Shown in pieces: positions 26,459 through 44,534 of a DNA stretch of 44,816 nucleotides. The stretch's first letter is position 1. Each line of letters starts with the position of its first letter. The translations under genes were made by a program, and so were the position numbers. The notes beneath the pieces are model-generated. The model searched no databases and had not been told where the DNA came from. It was given only the letters and a program-made list of their open reading frames with translations. Source of the DNA: Veterinaerplatzvirus T145P1; the sequence record OZ035767.1. One strand, 5' to 3'.

Positions 26459-26476
26459 ATAGCACGAATTGCTAAA
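26459..26476. promoter_or_regulatory. orphan copy of the palindrome (no canonical downstream -10 box)
   Basis: ATAGCACGAATTGCTAAA, 24 nt upstream of the minus-strand tail fibre start codon. Confidence 0.4.
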
Positions 26477-26499: not shown

Positions 26500-26524
26500 A
26501 TAAAAAAACCTCCCGAAGGAGGTT
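26500..26524 (-). terminator. rho-independent terminator of primase transcript (minus strand)
   Basis: AACCTCC-CGAA-GGAGGTT hairpin followed by T-run on the minus strand. Confidence 0.7.
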
Positions 26525-27449
26525 AGTCTAGTAATTCGCTCGCCTTGTATATTCGCTTTCTTATTCCTGATTTGAAGTGGTTATCATTATTTGGCATTAC
26601 AACATCAAGATTGCGATCGTCAGCAACGGCGAGTAAATCAAAATCGCTGCGAGTACAAGCGATGCGTAACTTGTAGTTTCTAAGCGCGTAAGCAACCATT
26701 TCCATGTTGTAACTGGAGTGGCAAACAAGCACACAGCGGTTCCCAGTAGCAATGTGAACGCGATAGCCATCAATGAAATTATCGACCAGATAAGCGTACT
26801 CATCATCCTTAAAGGAACCAATAACAGAAACAGACTGGCGAGAATAATCTTTTGCAGCATAACTAACATCTCCCTCCTCATTGATAAACATTACATTGCA
26901 CATCTCTTCTGATATGCCGTCACTATAAGCCATAAAGCACGGAACTGCGTGGATTAATTCACCTGATTTCGTCCTGCCAACATCAAAACCGAACTCGCTA
27001 TAGATACCCTCGTATGTACTGAGAGGAGTTGATTCTACTCTTTCCGTCCTTTCCATTATCTCTAAGCATCTTTCGTGATCAATCTGAGCGCCCATTTTGT
27101 ATGGTGATGTTCTTGAAGCTCTTTTGTTTGCTTTTGATATAACCTCTACTGGAGCGAGATTCAGCCAATCACCAAGCGTATCTATTGTTTCACTATAACT
27201 CATTCCAGAACACTTCATTACCCAACCAACACCAGAATCATTTCCACACTGGTTGCATATTGCTGCGCCATTTCCCTTTTCTTGACCTAACTCATCAGTG
27301 AAGCGAAACCTATCCTTGCCAAAGCAGTAAGGGCACGGACCATGTTTCTTGCTGAGATTCTCCTTTGTCCATCCAAGATGCGATGAGTAGAACTCACTCC
27401 ACATCCCTTTCATCTTGGCTATCACTTCGTTCTTATCATGGTGACTCAT
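26523..27449 (-). CDS. DNA primase (zinc-binding)
   Basis: Start ATG 27449 with RBS GGAGG; CPYC...CNQCG zinc-ribbon near the N-terminus. Confidence 0.6.
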   Translation of the reverse strand: MSHHDKNEVIAKMKGMWSEFYSSHLGWTKENLSKKHGPCPYCFGKDRFRFTDELGQEKGNGAAICNQCGNDSGVGWVMKCSGMSYSETIDTLGDWLNLAPVEVISKANKRASRTSPYKMGAQIDHERCLEIMERTERVESTPLSTYEGIYSEFGFDVGRTKSGELIHAVPCFMAYSDGISEEMCNVMFINEEGDVSYAAKDYSRQSVSVIGSFKDDEYAYLVDNFIDGYRVHIATGNRCVLVCHSSYNMEMVAYALRNYKLRIACTRSDFDLLAVADDRNLDVVMPNNDNHFKSGIRKRIYKASELLD

Positions 27450-27504
27450 AATTACCTCCATAAACAATAAAGGCACTATACATAATGCAAAGTGCCATTG
27501 TTTA

Positions 27505-27984
27505 TCAAATCGTGCTGTTTTGCTCTTTCTTCTTTTGGTTCTCTAATTTTATCTTGCGCCATGAACGACACTCTGGCTTAGTGGCTAATTCAGCCTCAGT
27601 GACGACTCGCAGCATATGGCGCTTTTTGCACCGAAGTGTCAGCGGTTTCCCGTTGCCGTCGAATTGCAGGTCTGGTCGGCAGAATGTAGCGCGAAAACCT
27701 TCTCCATTTCGCTTATAGTAGTTGTGAGAAAGTTGAGCCCCACGCGCAGAAATCATACCGCGCTTAAACCATTCTTCTACAGCCTGTGGTGTTACCTTTA
27801 ACTGCTTTGCGATATTCGCCTTTGTGCCGAAGAAATCAAGAACTATCTCTAGCCGCGCGCGTAGCCCGGCTCTTACTTCATCTTTTAAAACATAGTAGCC
27901 TGAAGGTCGTTTACGTTGCTTTTTGTCTTCGGTGCGGATGGTTCCGTTATTGCCGTTAATTGTTCGCTTGTCGACTGTATTCAT
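27505..27984 (-). CDS. HTH DNA-binding protein, putative transcriptional regulator
   Basis: 159 aa, basic; HTH-like segment TKANIAKQLKVTPQAVEEWF; divergent from helicase promoter element. Confidence 0.5.
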   Translation of the reverse strand: MNTVDKRTINGNNGTIRTEDKKQRKRPSGYYVLKDEVRAGLRARLEIVLDFFGTKANIAKQLKVTPQAVEEWFKRGMISARGAQLSHNYYKRNGEGFRATFCRPDLQFDGNGKPLTLRCKKRHMLRVVTEAELATKPECRSWRKIKLENQKKKEQNSTI

Positions 27985-28085: not shown

Positions 28086-30080
28086 ATGTTGCCTATCGAG
28101 AAGCTGGTTGCAAATTTCGATAAAGAAAGAATCAAACAGATTCAGAAAGACTATCAGTTTGGAGAGATAACCCCTTACGAATTCCAGTGCGTGACATTTG
28201 ATGCAATCGGAAAGGCTATTGGCAAGTACGAGGCACCATTTATCGCAGACCTTTCAGTATCTGCGGGTAAGACAATCATTCTTGCCATGATTGGTAAGCG
28301 CATGGAGCAGCTTGGGCTTCCCTATATGGTTCTCTCTCGCCAGTCAGAGATTATCAGCCAGAACTCAGAAGAGCTTCGTAATTTCGGCATACGTAATAGC
28401 GTCTATTGCGCTGGCCTTAACGTCAAATCAGTTTACTACCCAACTATAGTGGCCAGCGAGGGTACGGCAGCCAACGGCTTGTTTAAGGGGCTTGGTGACT
28501 ATGTTCCGGCAGTTATCGCTATAGATGAGTGTCACATGGTCGATCACATGGATATCGTGGAGGCTGAAGAGAATGAAGAAACATTTGAGCAAATGAGCAC
28601 AAAGAAAGGCGATATGGTTTTTAAGGATGGCGTAAACACAGGATTGCTTGGTACTGGTCGTGCGCAGTACACGCTAATTATCACCGAGATGAAACGTCGT
28701 TGTCGTGAGAAGTACGGGCGTGAGCTTCGTATATTCGGTCTTACTGGCAGCCCGTATCGTAACAACGATCATATCGTCGTTAGCAACCCAAACATCCGTG
28801 GATTCTGGCGCAAAACAGTGATTCAGGTGCCAACAAATTATCTGGTTGATTTGGGCTTCGTTGTTCCTACTGTTTATGGTGAAGTTGGTGACCTGGGTTA
28901 TGACCTTAGTGAGTTTGCGCCAGACGGAAGCGATGGCGTTAAAGACTTCAGCAAGAAAGAAATGGATGCAATGGCTGCAAAGATTCACGACAACCAATCA
29001 ATGACCCAAAAGATAATGGGTTTTGTTGTGAAAATACTCGAGACTCGTAACGCTGCATTGGTAACATGCGCTGGCAAACTCCATTGTGATGAGGCTGCTG
29101 CGGCACTACCAGATGGATACCCTTACGCCATCATCACAGACTCTACGGGAGAGAGGAAGCGCAGGGAGATTCTGGCTGATTGCCAGACAGGTAAGTACAA
29201 AATAATATTCCAGATTGGTTGTCTTACTACGGGCGTAAACCAGCCGCTGTGGGATACTAGCGTCATACTACGCAAGATTGGCAGCCTAACGCTTATGATT
29301 CAGCTTCTTGGTAGGGGGATGCGCAAACTTAATAGATCTCATATTGATGCTGGTTTTCATAAAGAAGATCACCTTGTGCTGGATTTTGCTGGCGCACTTG
29401 ATGATATGGCTGAGCTTTACTTTGACCCAATTATTGAAGAGATTCAGGCTGAGAAGTTTAAATCCTCAAGAAAAGGTGGCGATGAGGTTCGTCAGTGTCC
29501 GCAATGTGGATATGAAAATTCCCCATTCGCTCGTCGCTGTAGCAATAAGATTGATGGCGTTAGATGCGATCACTTCTTTCAGTTCACAATTTGCGAAGAC
29601 ATTACCGACGCGCAAACTAAATCGGTAATTAAAAAGGGTTGTGGCGCTCGCAATGACATAGCAGCAAAGGTTTGCAGGGAATGCGGCGAGATGCTTAAAG
29701 ACCCAAATGCTAACCTGACTGGCAAAATGTATCGTCGTGGTGATTACCTTCGTGTTTATGATTTTCAAGTTGGGTTAAGTAAGAATCAGACAGGCATTGT
29801 AGTTAAGTACAATATAATGGCTCATAACGGAGAGAGATTTAACGCTTGGGAGTTCTTTAATCCAGAATCAGACCATCGAGTTTGCAGTGTGCTCTGGAAG
29901 AACTTTTGCTTAGCTCATATTGAGAATCGCACGGAAGCGGCACGAATTGGCAGGCTTAAAAATGCCAGAATGATTATGACTAACGTAGATAAGTTCCGTG
30001 CGCCAGTTCAGGTTACGCATCGCCGGAATGCAAAAGGAAAGGACGTGATAGCGTTTAAGAATTTTGGAGAATTATTATGA
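28086..30080 (+). CDS. SF2 DNA helicase with C-terminal zinc-ribbon
   Basis: Walker A-like SAGKT, DECH box, QLLGRGMR motif VI, CPQCG...CRECG zinc ribbons. Confidence 0.8.
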   Translation: MLPIEKLVANFDKERIKQIQKDYQFGEITPYEFQCVTFDAIGKAIGKYEAPFIADLSVSAGKTIILAMIGKRMEQLGLPYMVLSRQSEIISQNSEELRNFGIRNSVYCAGLNVKSVYYPTIVASEGTAANGLFKGLGDYVPAVIAIDECHMVDHMDIVEAEENEETFEQMSTKKGDMVFKDGVNTGLLGTGRAQYTLIITEMKRRCREKYGRELRIFGLTGSPYRNNDHIVVSNPNIRGFWRKTVIQVPTNYLVDLGFVVPTVYGEVGDLGYDLSEFAPDGSDGVKDFSKKEMDAMAAKIHDNQSMTQKIMGFVVKILETRNAALVTCAGKLHCDEAAAALPDGYPYAIITDSTGERKRREILADCQTGKYKIIFQIGCLTTGVNQPLWDTSVILRKIGSLTLMIQLLGRGMRKLNRSHIDAGFHKEDHLVLDFAGALDDMAELYFDPIIEEIQAEKFKSSRKGGDEVRQCPQCGYENSPFARRCSNKIDGVRCDHFFQFTICEDITDAQTKSVIKKGCGARNDIAAKVCRECGEMLKDPNANLTGKMYRRGDYLRVYDFQVGLSKNQTGIVVKYNIMAHNGERFNAWEFFNPESDHRVCSVLWKNFCLAHIENRTEAARIGRLKNARMIMTNVDKFRAPVQVTHRRNAKGKDVIAFKNFGELL

Positions 30081-34540: not shown

Positions 34541-34905
34541 TAGTGTGCGTAGCTTTATCTGGATGTTCGGCAACTGATGCACTGACTGGATTGATTGGAA
34601 GCAAGCCGGAAGTTACAGCTCAGGTCGGGGCTGAGAACAACAAGGTTGGCGTTGGGTTAACGAATAAGGTCGATTCCAGCAGCTCCAGTGAAGCCACGGT
34701 TAAAGATTCTAAAGTTGGGTCACTTGATAGCTCAAGCGGGAAAAAGACTGCTGACAACTCGATTAAGGCATCTACAATCACTGCCGAAAAGATTGAGATT
34801 ACCAACAACGACTCATCCGCGCCTCCATGGATTGTAATGGGAGCTATGGGGTTGCTGTTTTTTGTTCCACTTACCGCAATCTTAAGACGCAAAAAAGCCT
34901 CCTAA
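34516..34905 (+). CDS. unimolecular spanin (u-spanin, T1 gp11-like)
   Basis: N-terminal lipoprotein signal with lipobox LSGC plus C-terminal transmembrane segment and basic tail in a single polypeptide. Confidence 0.75.
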   Translation: MFKWIAALVVCVALSGCSATDALTGLIGSKPEVTAQVGAENNKVGVGLTNKVDSSSSSEATVKDSKVGSLDSSSGKKTADNSIKASTITAEKIEITNNDSSAPPWIVMGAMGLLFFVPLTAILRRKKAS

Positions 34906-34920
34906 TGGAGGCTATATTTT
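34890..34920. terminator. bidirectional terminator between spanin and convergent minus-strand operon
   Basis: AGCCTCC-TAAT-GGAGGCT hairpin with A-run and T-run flanks. Confidence 0.7.
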
Positions 34921-35255
34921 TAGCTAAATAACTCGTCGTCAGTCATTGTTCCTATATTCATCATCTCTTTTATGTACTTGCTTTGATACCCGTTAAGCGC
35001 CTCGAAGTTAAACTCAAATGGCCTCTTCAAGCTACCATTGCTAGCAAACTCACCGCACTTACCATCAATGTATCCCATGCTAAGCATCTTCGCGCAGAAC
35101 TCCTTTGAAGCCGCGCTGCAAAACTCCCTATGCGATAATCCTGCCGCCTTACTGAATCTCTGAGAGTCCTTATGCTGGTAGATGAATCGCGCCAAATGCT
35201 GTCGCGTGAAAAAGCTGTAAGATTCGCAGAACCGGTACAAGTCAAGGATGAACAT
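34920..35255 (-). CDS. hypothetical protein
   Basis: 111 aa; last gene of the minus-strand operon, ends at a bidirectional terminator. Confidence 0.5.
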   Translation of the reverse strand: MFILDLYRFCESYSFFTRQHLARFIYQHKDSQRFSKAAGLSHREFCSAASKEFCAKMLSMGYIDGKCGEFASNGSLKRPFEFNFEALNGYQSKYIKEMMNIGTMTDDELFS

Positions 35256-35347
35256 AATTAACTCCTGAGCACTGCCAAAACAAATAGAAGCATCGAAATT
35301 GTTACAACAAAACCAAGTATTATCAGTAGTATCGATTCAATCATAAA

Positions 35348-36931
35348 TCACCCCAGCAATCTCGGATTAATGTAAACTTTATCACCAATCAGGCACGTAT
35401 AGTTTTTCTCATCAAGCATTGGCAGTAAGTGATCTTTAATCTTCGTCATCACTCCAGCCTGAGCCTCGAACGGCTTAACCTTTCGCGCCGCTTCATACAA
35501 TGAGCGAATGCCAACAACACCCTTACCGTTTTTACCCTGCTTGATCAGGATATCAATCAGCTTATTCATCTCGGCATTGTCGCCAGCGTGACCAGCCGCG
35601 TTGGCAGATGACAAATAAGTCTTGCTAAGCTCCTGGAACATGATTACAGCTTCTTGCATGGTATCAAGCTCAATCTCTCTGGATTTCTGTGGACTCCCAC
35701 CGCTAGGGTTGAACCAGTTGCGCACTGTGTGAAGAACAGCAGCAATCCTGATAGCCTGCTTATCGAATTTACCCAGCGCGCCGCGCAACATTGTGTGGGA
35801 ATACTTACCGCCGTCCGCAAGGTGCGGCTCCATTTCCTGACGTGCCCGGTTTAGATATTTCATCGCTGAGTTGCTAACCGTCAACTTTACTTCTTGCTCA
35901 TTCATGATTTCGTGAACCAGGCGGAAGTAGTTAGCCTTAAGCTCACCATCAATTGGCTCGTAAGTTGAGTTGCCATTCTCATCGACGAATACACGCTCGC
36001 CAAGGAATGATTTTTCACGCACAAGTAGAAAACGTTCCGACACACCAATACCACGAGCACCAGCATTCATGATTGCGTTTATTGTCTCATCTTGCGCAAT
36101 TACAGAGATGCATCCCATAGCGACGAAGCTCATGTTGTTTTCTGCGTTCGCACGCGCAATGGACACGTTACCAGCATCCCACGCCTTGAGTACGAGCTCG
36201 CTGTTCGTTTTCTTTGAGCCATCACCATAGGTCATACCTAGCAGAGAGTTCACGCTCGTTGCTTCATCAGAGATAACCGCGAAGTTGCCCTGGCGGTTGT
36301 TTATTCGCGCAAGACCTTCAGGCGTCGTATCTGATACTGGAAATACGATATCGCACATCTTTTCCAGCTTCTCCTCTAAATCCTCTTTCTCCTCAAAGAG
36401 AGACGCCATCTCTGATGGTGACTTTTCCTGCTTCATCTCTTTGGATAATGCAGACAGCTTTGCCATAATCTTTTTACGCTCACGCTTTCGCACTTCATTA
36501 AGCCGCTCAGTCTCAGCAATCATTGGCGCAATAGAAAGCGAGTTAATTGCTGATTTACCTGTGGATGGTGGCTGACTGGTTACTACGTATAGAGAGGTCG
36601 GTTGCTGGGTTCCGTGATACTCTACTGTAAAACGTCCCAGCATGGCGGCAGAAATACACCCCAGAAAGTGCATATAAGCTGAAGACTCTGGAAATTGAAC
36701 AGAACGGGCAATATTGGCTGACAGCTTACCAACAACATCAATGTCATTACCGAGTGAGATTACTGGATACTTGTCATTAGCCGCATCAATCTCAACTGGC
36801 GCTTTCCAGAATGATTGAGACTGACGATATCCATTGGCATTAATAGCGACGCGCAGGGGTGGGAGGTTGTCTGCGGCAGCAATTGCCATAACCTGTTCAA
36901 CAGATAGCTTATCTTCGTTGAAATCAAACAT
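35348..36931 (-). CDS. P-loop NTPase of unknown function (possible replication/primase-associated ATPase)
   Basis: 527 aa; Walker A PPSTGKS and Walker B-like VISDEA. Confidence 0.55.
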   Translation of the reverse strand: MFDFNEDKLSVEQVMAIAAADNLPPLRVAINANGYRQSQSFWKAPVEIDAANDKYPVISLGNDIDVVGKLSANIARSVQFPESSAYMHFLGCISAAMLGRFTVEYHGTQQPTSLYVVTSQPPSTGKSAINSLSIAPMIAETERLNEVRKRERKKIMAKLSALSKEMKQEKSPSEMASLFEEKEDLEEKLEKMCDIVFPVSDTTPEGLARINNRQGNFAVISDEATSVNSLLGMTYGDGSKKTNSELVLKAWDAGNVSIARANAENNMSFVAMGCISVIAQDETINAIMNAGARGIGVSERFLLVREKSFLGERVFVDENGNSTYEPIDGELKANYFRLVHEIMNEQEVKLTVSNSAMKYLNRARQEMEPHLADGGKYSHTMLRGALGKFDKQAIRIAAVLHTVRNWFNPSGGSPQKSREIELDTMQEAVIMFQELSKTYLSSANAAGHAGDNAEMNKLIDILIKQGKNGKGVVGIRSLYEAARKVKPFEAQAGVMTKIKDHLLPMLDEKNYTCLIGDKVYINPRLLG

Positions 36932-37117
36932 TACTTCTCTCCGTGTTGTTTCTGAGCGGCCATTATAACAACGACCGCTTATAAAGCATTATCAATTTGT
37001 GCTATTAATTGTTCTTAATCCACTTTAGACACATCCACAATCCAGCCCCATAGAATGCAATCTTGAGAACTTCAGCTAAGACAAGGATAATAAAGTATCC
37101 ACCACCAAGTAAATCAA

Positions 37118-37357
37118 TCATTTTTTAATCTCCATTTCCACAATTTCATAACTTATGTAATTATTTATCATTCCAATAAGTGATTTTGGGTATGTCTTCA
37201 TATGATTCTTGGCGGAATCTTCATCAAGATGTGCTGATATGTTGTGAAAATTGTATTCATAATCCATGCCAATTAGTATGTATATCTTATCGTGAGCATT
37301 AATGAAGTTATTTGATTTTATTTCCCCAAGCGACCAGCCCTTTCCTTTTCTAATCAT
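37118..37357 (-). CDS. hypothetical protein
   Basis: 79 aa, overlapping stop/start with neighbours. Confidence 0.45.
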   Translation of the reverse strand: MIRKGKGWSLGEIKSNNFINAHDKIYILIGMDYEYNFHNISAHLDEDSAKNHMKTYPKSLIGMINNYISYEIVEMEIKK

Positions 37358-37707
37358 TTGTATTGAGCCTCAAATCTGTAGTCGCCGCAGATTGTAATAA
37401 ATCCAACCTCATCATCCCTTAAAAGCTGCCAAGCATTACCCTCTTTATCGTAAATGCATCCAGCGCGCTGCCCAAGTCCAGCATGGAGATCTACTTGATA
37501 TCGCTTACCTTCAGTAAAGTATTTTCGAATAGATGAGCGATGATTGACCTTTGTGCAATAAATTGTCTTTGTCTTAATATACTTTCCGCGCTCTTCCAGG
37601 TTAATCCATTTGCCATCTTTCTTGATTTGCTCTACACCATCTTTAACGCGAGATTTGTAGAGTACGTTTTCGTTGCTGATCCAGTTTTTGGTAATCGTAG
37701 TAGTCAT
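37354..37707 (-). CDS. hypothetical protein
   Basis: 117 aa; first gene after minus-strand promoter element 37747-37790. Confidence 0.5.
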   Translation of the reverse strand: MTTTITKNWISNENVLYKSRVKDGVEQIKKDGKWINLEERGKYIKTKTIYCTKVNHRSSIRKYFTEGKRYQVDLHAGLGQRAGCIYDKEGNAWQLLRDDEVGFITICGDYRFEAQYK

Positions 37708-37746
37708 TTCTTTTACCCTTCGTTGTTTCGTTTCGTTTCGATTGGA

Positions 37747-37790
37747 TAACTATACATTGAAAGCCCCGAAGGGCTTTAGCAATTAGTGCT
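37747..37790 (-). promoter_or_regulatory. conserved palindrome-promoter element (minus strand)
   Basis: Reverse complement: AGCACTAATTGCTAAA - 22 nt containing a GC hairpin - TATAGTTA, then CGAAACGAAACGAAAC leader. Confidence 0.6.
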
Positions 37791-37937
37791 GTTTCGTGCT
37801 TTCTCTATCGCCTTGAGCATAATCTCGTGACTTTCCAGTAAGTCCTCTCGGAACCAATCTCCACAAGGCCAGCCTTTTCCGCTATAGGCACTTATGACCT
37901 CGAGATCGAAATAATTTATCTCAGATGGTAATAGCAT
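37776..37937 (-). CDS. hypothetical small protein
   Basis: 53-aa ORF, ATGA-coupled; stop codon lies inside the palindromic element. Confidence 0.35.
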   Translation of the reverse strand: MLLPSEINYFDLEVISAYSGKGWPCGDWFREDLLESHEIMLKAIEKARNSTNC

Positions 37938-38179
37938 CACTTCACCTCATCAAAAGTTGCAATCCCAGGAATAAACATCCCAACCTTCCAGCCTGCAATG
38001 GCAATCCATCCAGAATCGTGCTTGTGCGGTCGCTCAGCGCCATTAATCACCCATTCGTTCGGGATTGTCTTGCCGTTAATGATTAGAGGCTCAGCGTCGT
38101 ATACAGAGCCTTTAACGAATGGTGTTAAGGCTTTCTTGTCAGTGCTATTGATAACGTTAGTGCAGATTATTTTAGTCAT
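37937..38179 (-). CDS. hypothetical protein
   Basis: 80 aa. Confidence 0.5.
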   Translation of the reverse strand: MTKIICTNVINSTDKKALTPFVKGSVYDAEPLIINGKTIPNEWVINGAERPHKHDSGWIAIAGWKVGMFIPGIATFDEVK

Positions 38180-38363
38180 TTACAACCTCGTACTCACCTT
38201 TATAAACAGCGACCTCTTCATTCACATTGTTGACAATCACTGCTAAACAAAGAGCACCCAAATATTTTACCACTTCGTACTCGCAGCCAAGCGTCAGACC
38301 ATAGTCCTCACATGAACGTCCACTGCAATCTAAATCTTCGAATTTAACTAACTTAATTTTCAT
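38172..38363 (-). CDS. hypothetical Cys-containing protein
   Basis: 63 aa. Confidence 0.45.
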   Translation of the reverse strand: MKIKLVKFEDLDCSGRSCEDYGLTLGCEYEVVKYLGALCLAVIVNNVNEEVAVYKGEYEVVND

Positions 38364-38373
38364 ATCTCAATCC

Positions 38374-38553
38374 TCAAATAAATGGCAAGCATTCGACGCA
38401 GCCAAGCCCATCACAGCACATGAATTCATCTTCTGACTGGAATTGCTTTGCTAAATCAATGTCTAGCCTTCCGCGCACCACAAGGTCGGTGTAATCTTCA
38501 TTAAGCCCAATCAGTGCGCACTCGTTACGTAACTCATCTTTATTCTTTTTCAT
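38374..38553 (-). CDS. hypothetical small Cys-rich protein
   Basis: 59-aa ORF with C-terminal CCDGLGCVEC cluster. Confidence 0.35.
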   Translation of the reverse strand: MKKNKDELRNECALIGLNEDYTDLVVRGRLDIDLAKQFQSEDEFMCCDGLGCVECLPFI

Positions 38554-38716
38554 TTATCCTGGCCTTTTAAATTATAACGCTCTCTCAGAACTTCAACCCA
38601 TTCTTGCGCGTCATTCTCTCTCATGAAGAAACTTAAATTTGGGTACTTGTGAAACCCTTTAAGTTCAACTATCCAATGACCACCTTCGTAACTATAACTA
38701 ACTTTCTTCTCTGTCA
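38554..38716 (-). CDS. hypothetical small protein
   Basis: 53-aa ORF, first gene of the minus-strand operon, stop/start coupled. Confidence 0.35.
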
Positions 38717-38926
38717 TTTTGTTACCTTTTGAGTTTTTTTATTATCGACATCTCTTCAACGTACTCGCTACAACTCGGGATTTTACTCCCGGCCCGGCAT
38801 CCTAACAAAAGGACCCGATCGGCGCTTTGGTGGGTGAGGTAACGCTTCCTCACATTGCGCGGTAGTATTTACTCCTTTTGGTCTCTTTCGAGAGTGACTC
38901 AGAGTCTGCTACCGTGTCGATGAGAT

Positions 38927-38973
38927 TAAGTATACGCATAGTTAGCCACACTGTCTTTAGCAAAAAGTGCTAT
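38927..38973 (-). promoter_or_regulatory. conserved palindrome-promoter element (minus strand)
   Basis: Reverse complement: ATAGCACTTTTTGCTAAA - about 23 nt - TATACTTA. Confidence 0.5.
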
Positions 38974-38987
38974 TCGTTAGATTTATG

Positions 38988-39075
38988 TATTGTTGCAGAT
39001 ATTGCAATGATTCACTTGATTATTGCACATACAGCAATATTGCTTCCGATGCAATGATGTTTTTGATTGTTGCGA
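38988..39075. repeat. cluster of ATTGCA/TGCAAT half-sites and short palindromes
   Basis: ATTGCAAT (39001-39008), AGCAATATTGCT (39033-39044), plus repeated TTGCA/GCAAT units in the divergent control region. Confidence 0.6.
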
Positions 39076-39260
39076 AAAGTGAAATTAAGTGGTGAGTGAG
39101 TGAATGAAAGATGGATGGACTACCATACAAGTTGATTTTTACCAATCTATGGGAGCCTCACGGATATACGCGTATCCTCCGTATACTCAGTGTCGTCACA
39201 AAAGTTAGTGACCACTAACCTACGTTTTTACGCGATATATACACACGATATACAATATAA

Positions 39261-39326
39261 TATCTATATATATCAACCTTTTACTTTATTATTATTATTA
39301 TTATTATATATATGTATACTGTGTAT
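39261..39326. repeat. AT-rich repeat copy B with longer (TTA)n microsatellite
   Basis: Same unit as 20693-20750 with about two extra TTA triplets. Confidence 0.8.
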
Positions 39327-39533
39327 ACCGGTAATTGGTGAGATTATTGATATGTTCCGCGCAGATATTCTGACACCTGTCAGAAATGGATGGCATTGTA
39401 GGAATAAAAGGCACATATATAGGGAATGGCTTCAAAAATCTGTACACATCGGATACGGCACATTTACAACCAGCAATGGAGGGGCCTCTGGAGGCAAGAA
39501 GCGTATCCATGATAAAATAGACGAAAATATACA

Positions 39534-39566
39534 TTGACCGACACGTAAATAGATGGCAATATAGCA
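39534..39566 (+). promoter_or_regulatory. candidate early promoter with canonical -35
   Basis: TTGACC followed by GATGGCAATATAG -10 region and CACTGAAACGAAG leader; lacks the palindrome. Confidence 0.45.
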
Positions 39567-39602
39567 GTCACTGAAACGAAGTAAAACAAACGAGGTATCA
39601 AC

Positions 39603-40151
39603 ATGCAGAAAGTAACACTAGGTGAAGTTATCCGTGAGATGGTGCGCAACGCGATGGTGTCCGAGAGTGGTGAGTTTAAAGTTCCGGTTAGCCAGATATT
39701 CAAACTGGTTCGAGGCAAGGAATACCCTGAAATGGTGTATGACGAAGATACTAGTGAGATCCTCAACCTGGCAGATAGGGCGATGCCGGAACTAAAGAAC
39801 TCATACATCTATAACACAGTGTCGAGAATGACAGAGCTTCGCGATGCTAATAAGCGAGCGAGATATAAGTTCATCTGGATTGATGATGACGGAGAGCAAA
39901 CAAGGCCCGGTAGCTTCGACGGTGATGGCGCTGATAAATACCTGGTCATATACATTGAGAACGGCGCGCACTGGACTGGGAGTCGCGAAAAGAAAAAGCA
40001 GGAAGCGGAGAAAGAGGCGGCTATCATTGAAAAGTTCAAGTCTAGACTGCTCAAGCTGTCACCAAGTGTTGCTGGCTTGGAAGGTGAAGAACTTAAGGGC
40101 GCTGTTACAATGATTAATGCTTATCAGGAAATGATTAAGGAGACTAAGTAG
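39603..40151 (+). CDS. hypothetical early protein
   Basis: 182 aa, RBS GAGGT; first gene downstream of early promoter region. Confidence 0.55.
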   Translation: MQKVTLGEVIREMVRNAMVSESGEFKVPVSQIFKLVRGKEYPEMVYDEDTSEILNLADRAMPELKNSYIYNTVSRMTELRDANKRARYKFIWIDDDGEQTRPGSFDGDGADKYLVIYIENGAHWTGSREKKKQEAEKEAAIIEKFKSRLLKLSPSVAGLEGEELKGAVTMINAYQEMIKETK

Positions 40152-44457: not shown

Positions 44458-44534
44458 GCTCGAGTGGCGAAAGTGGATATCGCAAGAGACTTCTAATCTC
44501 TAGATTGCTGGTTCGAATCCAGCCTCGAGCGCCA
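44458..44534 (+). tRNA. tRNA-Arg (anticodon UCU), CCA encoded
   Basis: Hand-folded cloverleaf with all four stems fully Watson-Crick paired (7/4/5/5 bp); U8, A14, G18G19, U33; anticodon loop CUUCUAA; T-loop TTCGAAT; discriminator G then CCA. Confidence 0.9.

Follow-up and report, generated by a model that had tools for sequence, protein, structure and literature searches.

A leftward gene block in the Rtp-like phage Veterinaerplatzvirus T145P1 appears to combine a conserved replication-type core with an exchangeable accessory array

Organization of the block

We analyzed a leftward block of small genes around a P-loop ATPase gene (positions 34920–38973) in the genome of Veterinaerplatzvirus T145P1 (sequence record OZ035767.1). 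The whole stretch of 44,816 nucleotides (nt) is referred to as the window, and all coordinates are counted from its first letter unless another record is named. An earlier note on this DNA had described the block as a host-takeover or anti-defense early/middle operon in which no gene has an obvious function. Our analysis instead makes it likely that the block is composite, with a conserved replication-type core, a hypervariable accessory array, three promoters, and a structured leader cassette. The evidence consists of homology, conservation, synteny, promoter motif statistics, and RNA covariation, and it is the basis on which we propose a replicative role, partner roles, an accessory or defense-related role, and timing.

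The window holds, starting with the gene for the small terminase, structural, recombination, primase, superfamily 2 (SF2) helicase, and lysis genes; by this gene content, it is a complete genome of an Rtp-like member of the Drexlerviridae, with the record opening at the terminase. A megablast search with 34920–38973 returned three Veterinaerplatzvirus T145P1 records at 99.3–99.5% identity over the full length, and ~130 Rtp-like coliphages at 80–92% identity over parts of the region only. The block is homologous to ST1–ST10 of phage T1 and rtp66–rtp75 of phage Rtp, and among the annotated blocks inspected, it has equivalents in SU57, OzMSK, G8, and Bas11. In all six relatives, it lies on the strand opposite the lysis cassette, begins at a divergent non-coding region, and converges with that cassette across a terminator. 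Overall, phages of this well-known family are already known to carry the block, the present genome is nearly identical to deposited ones, and the leader RNA with its 55-amino-acid (aa) gene is the only element for which we found no description. The literature searched contained no transcriptome of a T1-like phage. The features of the block, in the order of transcription, are as follows.

38993–39054, no strand: three TTGCA-N5-TGCAA-like palindromes within 62 bp, operator-like, just upstream of P1
38956–38973, minus strand: predicted promoter P1 motif ATAGCACTTTTTGCTAAA, containing the palindrome TAGCA-N5-TGCTA (motif statistics)
38929–38934, minus strand: P1 −10 hexamer TATACT, 21 nt past the motif
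38744–38921, minus strand: structured 178-nt core of the 5′ leader, beginning at the predicted transcription start, with a closing stem around nine helices in a multi-branch fold
38550–38717, minus strand: 55-aa gene, rare accessory, 9 records, always with the leader
38374–38553, minus strand: 59-aa gene (phrog_9053; Rtp74-like) with Cys-rich C-terminus CCDGLGCVECLPFI
38172–38363, minus strand: 63-aa gene (phrog_14327), rare accessory, 9 records
37937–38179, minus strand: 80-aa gene (phrog_4448; Rtp73-like), accessory, 136 records, essentially in Rtp-like coliphages only
37776–37937, minus strand: 53-aa gene (phrog_4548; Rtp72-like), by PHROG match
37749–37792, minus strand: predicted promoter P2, motif ACAGCACTAATTGCTAAA at 37775–37792, −10 TATAGT at 37749–37754
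37354–37707, minus strand: 117-aa core protein (T1 gp07/ST7 family, phrog_2684), all-beta model
37118–37357, minus strand: 79-aa gene, Rtp68-like, without PHROG or Pfam match
37005–37121, minus strand: hydrophobic micro-ORF of 38 aa that is coupled to the 79-aa gene through ATGA
36962–37005, minus strand: predicted promoter P3, motif ATAGCACAAATTGATAAT at 36988–37005, −10 TATAAT at 36962–36967 within an inverted repeat, directly upstream of the ATPase gene
35348–36931, minus strand: 527-aa DUF3987 helicase (T1 gp09/ST9, Rtp67), by Pfam, PHROG, and motifs
35258–35344, minus strand: 28-aa transmembrane-like micro-ORF in the gap between the helicase and gp10 genes
34920–35255, minus strand: 111-aa core protein (T1 gp10/ST10 family, phrog_2794), winged helix with a low-confidence tail
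34896–34913, both strands: predicted intrinsic terminator acting in both directions, a stem-loop that has T-runs on either strand and also serves the converging lysis cassette

As described previously, the block is leftward and tightly packed, starts from a divergent promoter region, and has an internal promoter. All eleven open reading frames (ORFs) that had been listed are present on the minus strand, with coordinates that hold apart from small offsets; the first gene (55 aa) spans 38550–38717 rather than 38554–38716 and overlaps the next start by ATGA. The packing is tight because consecutive genes overlap by 4 nt (38550–38553), 8 nt (38172–38179), 1 nt (37937), 4 nt (37354–37357), and 4 nt (37118–37121), and a Shine-Dalgarno-like purine run precedes every start in the block. 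A 10-nt gap separates 38374 and 38363. PHROG families were matched by seven of the nine named ORFs (E 1e-31 to 1e-259), and the 55-aa and 79-aa ORFs have translated homologs in related phages that are 87–96% identical.

Both hydrophobic micro-ORFs previously proposed as possible genes are conserved in relatives, the 38-aa ORF in SU57, OzMSK, and Rtp and the 28-aa ORF in G8 and OzMSK. The former is annotated in SU57 and OzMSK, and its Rtp copy is 47% identical. The latter holds the Shine-Dalgarno site of the 111-aa gene in its 3′ end, persists in G8 and OzMSK as a hydrophobic ORF of 27–28 aa in spite of strongly diverged DNA, and is absent where the helicase and gp10 genes abut (Rtp, T1). Since one is annotated or kept in relatives and the other survives DNA divergence, both are probably real small membrane peptides.

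A DUF3987 helicase and two conserved putative partners

The product of 35348–36931 is assigned by profile and motif matches as a DUF3987 helicase. The 527-aa protein matched Pfam DUF3987 (PF13148) with E=5.6e-42 and 144.7 bits against a cut-off of 27, covering profile positions 3–349 of 364, and PHROG 2373 “DNA helicase” with E=5e-259; residues 438–526 matched a separate family, PHROG 7327. It carries the Walker A sequence QPPSTGKS and the Walker B sequence VISDEA, together with conserved IAQDE and SERFL. Walker A is invariant across five homologs down to 34% identity (range 34–67%), and the Walker B Asp is replaced by Ala in the homolog of Vibrio phage D82. A sequence search of the 527-aa protein against PDB chains returned nothing useful. 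For the ATPase, then, the statement that none of the genes has an obvious function fails on its Pfam and PHROG 2373 matches.

The helicase is found in 924 phage records, in 907 of them at full length, and the synteny of its block is fixed across the Drexlerviridae inspected (T1, Rtp, SU57, OzMSK, G8, and Bas11). In Klebsiella phage RCIP0103, where the helicase is 38% identical, its gene lies beside those of a primase (32% identity) and an SF2 helicase (37% identity), with one 99-aa gene between the helicase and primase genes, and in Vibrio phage D82, it adjoins an SF2 helicase and exonuclease VIII. Amber mutants in T1 genes 1 and 2, at the same end of the genetic map, are defective in DNA synthesis, which would agree with a role in replication. 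Profile comparison has connected DUF3987 with MCM-like SF6 helicases, and DUF3987 members have been proposed to be phage replicative helicases, often adjoining or fused to primases (PMC4889955); the DUF3987 protein AgaPH unwinds DNA 5′→3′ and binds its primase-polymerase (PMC11724360). From homology and gene context, we infer that the 527-aa protein is most likely the replicative helicase of the phage. The earlier note had named clear homology to routine replication proteins with conserved synteny as grounds against its own interpretation. With DUF3987 homology, 924 records, fixed synteny, and replication-gene neighbors in distant relatives, this is what the ATPase displays, and on the note's own terms the takeover or anti-defense interpretation is refuted for the ATPase and its two conserved neighbors.

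T1, Bas11, and the window have just three gene families of the block in common, those of the helicase, gp10, and gp07, with identities to T1 of 57%, 51%, and 38%, respectively. The gp10 family, to which the 111-aa protein belongs, occurs in 834 records, and its gene directly follows the helicase gene in all annotated relatives inspected. The model of the 111-aa protein has winged-helix topology, with four helices (H-H-H-H) and a beta-hairpin wing, and its low-confidence tail contains the invariant sequence DDELF. The 99-aa gene of RCIP0103 (L140, 4994–5293) occupies the same position, has no detectable relation to gp10, and ends in SDELFSEDLY. This single observation hints that DDELF/SDELF may be a shared short docking motif. 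We infer that the 111-aa protein acts as a DNA-binding or helicase-associated partner.

The gp07 family, represented here by the 117-aa protein, occurs in 797 records, yet its members fall into no more than 25 clusters among 1.8 billion representatives. Its conserved domain covers residues ~45–116, and stand-alone 75-aa versions exist. The model is all-beta (predicted local distance difference test score, pLDDT, 76.5) and matches the fold of Gp54 of Bas11 (PDB 9AXB), a six-stranded beta-barrel protein. No sequence relation between the 117-aa protein and Gp54 was found by profile search against PDB, by BLASTP/tblastn, or by hhalign (probability 0.3), and the two are 13% identical. Because of this lack of a sequence-level relation, the model-based likeness is one of shared fold, with homology undemonstrated.

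Promoters and control region

The promoter previously placed at 38927–38973 coincides exactly with a family-specific motif, ATAGCACnnnTTGnTAAA (38956–38973), together with TATACT (38929–38934). The reported internal promoter is likewise real, having the same motif at 37775–37792 and TATAGT at 37749–37754, and a third promoter, before the ATPase gene, had been overlooked. Because three copies of the motif (38956–38973, 37775–37792, and 36988–37005) fall in the block, it is organized as three nested transcription units and not as one operon with a single internal promoter. The spacer of P2 holds a hairpin, GCCCTTCGGGGC followed by TTT (37760–37774), and the annotators of SU57 called a terminator at the equivalent hairpin; SU57 also carries an annotated promoter at the place equivalent to P3. 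The terminator at 34896–34913 is annotated likewise in SU57 and T1.

The 18-nt motif occurs 19 times in the window versus 0.56 copies expected, nearly always co-oriented with genes, and the palindrome TAGCA-N5-TGCTA occurs 17 times versus 1.8 expected. At 18 of the 19 motif copies, the layout is fixed: the motif, 19–21 nt, and TATAnT, usually followed by CATCGAAACGA, a Shine-Dalgarno sequence, and an ATG ~40 nt on. Sites elsewhere in the window include 2116, 9293, 30493, 42076, and 43453, and many spacers between motif and −10 hold a short inverted repeat, in some cases with the −10 inside it. The copy at 26459–26476 on the plus strand opposes the surrounding minus-strand tail fiber and primase genes, lacks a −10 at the usual distance, and is followed by a strong hairpin, CCTCCCGAAGGAGG.

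Measured against the canonical sigma-70 promoter (−35 TTGACA and −10 TATAAT, 16–18 nt apart), the three promoters of the block have a good −10 (5–6 of 6 positions) but carry TTGnTA 22–23 nt upstream of it, and a generic sigma-70 scan of the window showed no enrichment (17 sites versus 12.4 expected). Class II activator sites usually sit near −42, and the palindromic box, centered near −42, would occupy this position and not that of a standard −35. A sigma-54 reading was rejected, as the box lacks the GG and is spaced two bases more closely than TGGCAC-N5-TTGC. A 159-aa protein encoded beside the primase (27505–27984, minus strand) has a weak Cro/DicC/RacR-like helix-turn-helix match and could be the protein that reads the palindromic boxes.

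In Bas11, the motif precedes gene 54, the gp07-like gene, and the helicase gene. Mutations just upstream of gene 54 reduced Gp54 expression (PMC11578894), and the gene 54 upstream region drives plasmid expression in uninfected E. coli (PMC11578894, Extended Data Fig. 1d). Because this motif-bearing region works in uninfected cells, the analogy suggests that these promoters can be used by the RNA polymerase of the host without further factors. Structural genes, too, are preceded by promoters of this type, and for this reason, the early or middle timing previously assigned to the block cannot be read from the sequence.

Upstream of P1, the TTGCA-N5-TGCAA-like palindromes are conserved in contigs L134, L135, and L137; genome-wide, there are 7 versus 3.3 expected, which is not significant, so that only their clustering stands out. 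They lie within a divergent 630-bp non-coding region (38974–39602) that is AT-rich and contains (TAA)n and TATA-rich inverted repeats. Since the linear record ends of T1, Rtp, SU57, and OzMSK fall in the equivalent region, 38974–39602 may hold a pac site and/or an origin. ORFs at 39190–39537 (plus strand) and 39464–39808 (minus strand) look spurious on inspection. The first rightward gene, 39603–40151 on the plus strand, encodes a DUF7174 protein (E=5e-49) and lies opposite the leader–55-aa cassette in L135 and L137 as well; a tRNA-Arg gene with anticodon TCT (44458–44534, plus strand) lies near the end of the rightward small-gene region.

Variable small genes and antiphage defense

The genes between P1 and P2 have a different distribution from that of the core. 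Among 50,697 phage records, the three families counted occur in 136 (80-aa), 9 (55-aa), and 9 (63-aa), versus 924, 834, and 797 for the helicase, gp10, and gp07 families. G+C content is 0.39–0.42 across the small genes versus 0.46 across the helicase gene. Apart from the helicase, gp10, and gp07 families, all small genes are unrelated among T1, Bas11, and the window. Bas11 gp50 (L007, 38737–38961), otherwise unrelated to the 59-aa protein, ends in CGCEFDPACKRCFPF, and the two may share a Cys-rich C-terminal knuckle encoded in the same operon slot (BLASTP E 0.5).

Gene 54 of Bas11 is the second gene of the equivalent array. Its product is non-essential, spontaneous deletions remove gene 54 together with its neighbors, and Gp54 directly activates the defense protein CapRelSJ46; according to the authors of that study, Gp54 may inhibit another defense, and close Gp54 homologs fail to activate CapRelSJ46 (PMC11578894). 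Given their variability, low G+C content, and location in the slot of Bas11 gene 54, the small genes that precede gp07 are best read, by analogy, as an exchangeable accessory array of the kind that engages host immunity. A counter-defense function for them is plausible, as a reasonable guess from the same analogy. Searching the small genes with profiles from Pfam, PHROGs, NCBIfam, and PADLOC revealed no defense-related match, and NCBIfam and PADLOC scans of all block products gave no meaningful matches.

These observations bear on whether the whole block, ATPase included, could be a host-takeover or anti-defense early/middle operon without routine functions. Such an operon would account for small genes that are variable, low in G+C, and adjacent to a divergent control region, for an equivalent Bas11 slot encoding a protein that is sensed by one defense and suggested to inhibit another (PMC11578894), and for the position of the T1 block at one physical end of the genome record. 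It is at odds with the identification of the ATPase as a DUF3987 helicase present in 924 records and flanked by replication genes in distant relatives, with the equally core status of the gp07 and gp10 families, with zero matches to defense-related profiles, and with a promoter type that is not specific to early genes. We therefore regard a whole-block takeover operon as unlikely. The host-takeover or anti-defense idea stays plausible for the variable small genes, which are hypervariable, low in G+C, and in the Gp54 slot, but not for the helicase and the two core genes.

A candidate structured leader RNA that travels with the 55-aa gene

As had been noted, the first gene is preceded by a long leader, with ~205 nt between the transcription start predicted near 38921 and the ATG at position 38717. 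Leaders at other promoters in the genome are ~40 nt, making this one five times the usual length. The leader folds better than shuffled sequences (z=−2.2). RNAalifold on its core gave nine helices with 50 pairs, 99.3% paired (all but 3 of 400 pair cells are standard), and five pairs with compensatory double changes versus 0–1 in slid controls, in an alignment of 8 closely related sequences comprising about five substitution events. One compensatory pair lies in the closing stem, with partners 167 nt apart. Across the same eight aligned sequences, conservation is much higher in the core than in either the promoter spacer or the beginning of the gene that follows. Because the sample is small and closely related, we put the odds that the leader is a functional structured RNA at roughly even.

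The full leader was found in nine phage records, which are exactly the nine carrying the 55-aa gene (9/9), and four further copies were recovered from Logan and ENA contigs via exact-protein look-ups only. The 55-aa protein has no PHROG or Pfam match and forms 4 clusters among 5.8 billion proteins; a back-translated search of IMG/VR with its gene gave zero matches. At the gathering threshold, an Rfam scan of the whole window reported only tRNA-Arg, the leader falling below every threshold. With permissive settings, the best match within the leader had E 0.45 and 15.7 bits against a 46.7-bit threshold, and the best in 38600–39650 had E 0.14. Short-word searches behaved similarly: all matches to a GC-rich 15-mer lacked the leader, a 16-mer hit four IMG/VR contigs, all unrelated, and a 20-mer gave one chance match in JGI metagenomes and zero in IMG/VR. 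The leader was absent from the 5,426 E. coli genomes searched.

Could this region instead encode a short protein, like the 51-aa gp01 annotated in ACG-M12? An overlapping ORF does exist, at 38722–38853 in the window (43 aa, GTG start) and as a 51-aa ATG ORF in ACG-M12. Its ATG, however, is confined to ACG-M12, its end shifts between phages via single-base indels in an A-run, no Shine-Dalgarno sequence was seen on reading the sequence, and the substitutions fall as compensatory stem pairs, one of them spanning 167 nt, all of which makes a coding gene improbable. We also examined whether the leader masks the ribosome-binding site: a 12-nt segment (38803–38814) is complementary to the start-codon region, but the idea was dropped because this complementarity is not kept in the IMM-001 and L134 rows of the alignment.

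Tentatively, and with somewhat more doubt than confidence, we suggest that the leader RNA and the 55-aa gene form an undescribed mobile RNA–protein cassette, and that at least one neighboring hypervariable small gene may encode a counter-defense factor, as suggested for Gp54. The cassette might, for instance, comprise an autoregulatory leader to which the product of its gene binds, or an RNA acting on host defense or a host factor.

A probable composite block

Taken together, the layout we favor would work as follows. The core would comprise a gp07-family beta-barrel protein, a DUF3987 hexameric-type helicase, and a gp10-family winged-helix protein with a DDELF docking-like motif, and the helicase would act with a DnaG-type primase, a stand-alone protein whose gene lies 8 kb away. 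The tiny genes upstream would be exchanged between phages and of a defense-interacting kind; their counterparts are dispensable in a relative. Transcription would proceed from promoters at 38973, 37792, and 37005 and end at the bidirectional terminator at 34896–34913, the first transcript opening with the 178-nt structured RNA that travels with the 55-aa gene as one cassette.

Several points count against this composite layout. The primase (26523–27476), which is of the DnaG type without a helicase domain, lies ~8 kb from the helicase gene, and a second helicase (SF2, 28086–30080) could share the replicative work. The Gp54 match of the 117-aa protein is at the level of fold only, the small genes lack defense-related profile matches, the covariation comes from few and closely related sequences, and the promoter type is shared with structural genes. 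The idea that the entire block is a replication module, its small genes being lineage-specific initiators, loaders, or origin-associated factors, draws on the adjacent AT-rich, repeat-bearing 630-bp non-coding region as a possible origin and on the presence of a winged-helix protein with a helicase, but we consider it very improbable given that the upstream genes are unrelated among T1, Bas11, and the window though the helicases are 57–67% identical, that they occur in 9–136 records versus 924 for the helicase, and that Bas11 survives deletions spanning gene 54 and its neighbors (PMC11578894).

Under the composite layout, what had been an operon around an unknown ATPase becomes a defined arrangement of a replicative-type helicase, two family-wide partners, and an exchangeable accessory array. 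The two core partners, the palindromic promoter box, and the leader with its 55-aa gene are the pointers for experiments, and, since Bas11 encodes Gp54 in the equivalent slot, triggers and inhibitors of defense in Drexlerviridae may sensibly be sought in the accessory array.

Comparison with known systems

The closest counterparts of the block are ST1–ST10 (gp01–gp10) of T1 and rtp66–rtp75 of Rtp, which follow the same strand logic, converge on a holin–endolysin–spanin cassette across a shared terminator, and keep the order of variable small genes, gp07, helicase gp09, and gp10. T1 differs in that none of its small genes ahead of gp07 is related to those of the window and an HNH endonuclease gene (ST8) lies between gp07 and the helicase; both T1 and Rtp lack the pair of hydrophobic micro-ORFs and the structured leader seen in the window.

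The promoter motif corresponds to the 21-nt direct repeat aaATAGCACnnnTTGnTAAAA of phages TLS and T1, sharing identical sequence, co-orientation with transcription, and a position upstream of genes. The role of the TLS repeat was left open between a stoperator, an enhancer, and an UP element (PMC11447400), whereas here it is resolved as a palindrome ~20 nt before a TATAnT −10, usually followed by CATCGAAACGA.

With the DUF3987 helicases of mobile elements (AgaPH, PriCT-DUF3987 proteins, N4 dns, and the SF6 protein of mycobacteriophage Corndog), the 527-aa protein shares the ATPase core with Walker A and B sequences, and a primase is encoded in its genome as well (PMC4889955, PMC11724360). In contrast to them, it has no fused PriCT or primase domain, its DnaG-type primase being encoded 8 kb off.

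Finally, the CapRelSJ46 trigger Gp54 of Bas11 (PDB 9AXB) comes from the same operon slot in a Drexlerviridae genome. Gp54 itself has no homolog in the window by BLASTP/tblastn, whereas the 117-aa protein with the matching fold is a core protein that carries an extra N-terminal beta segment.

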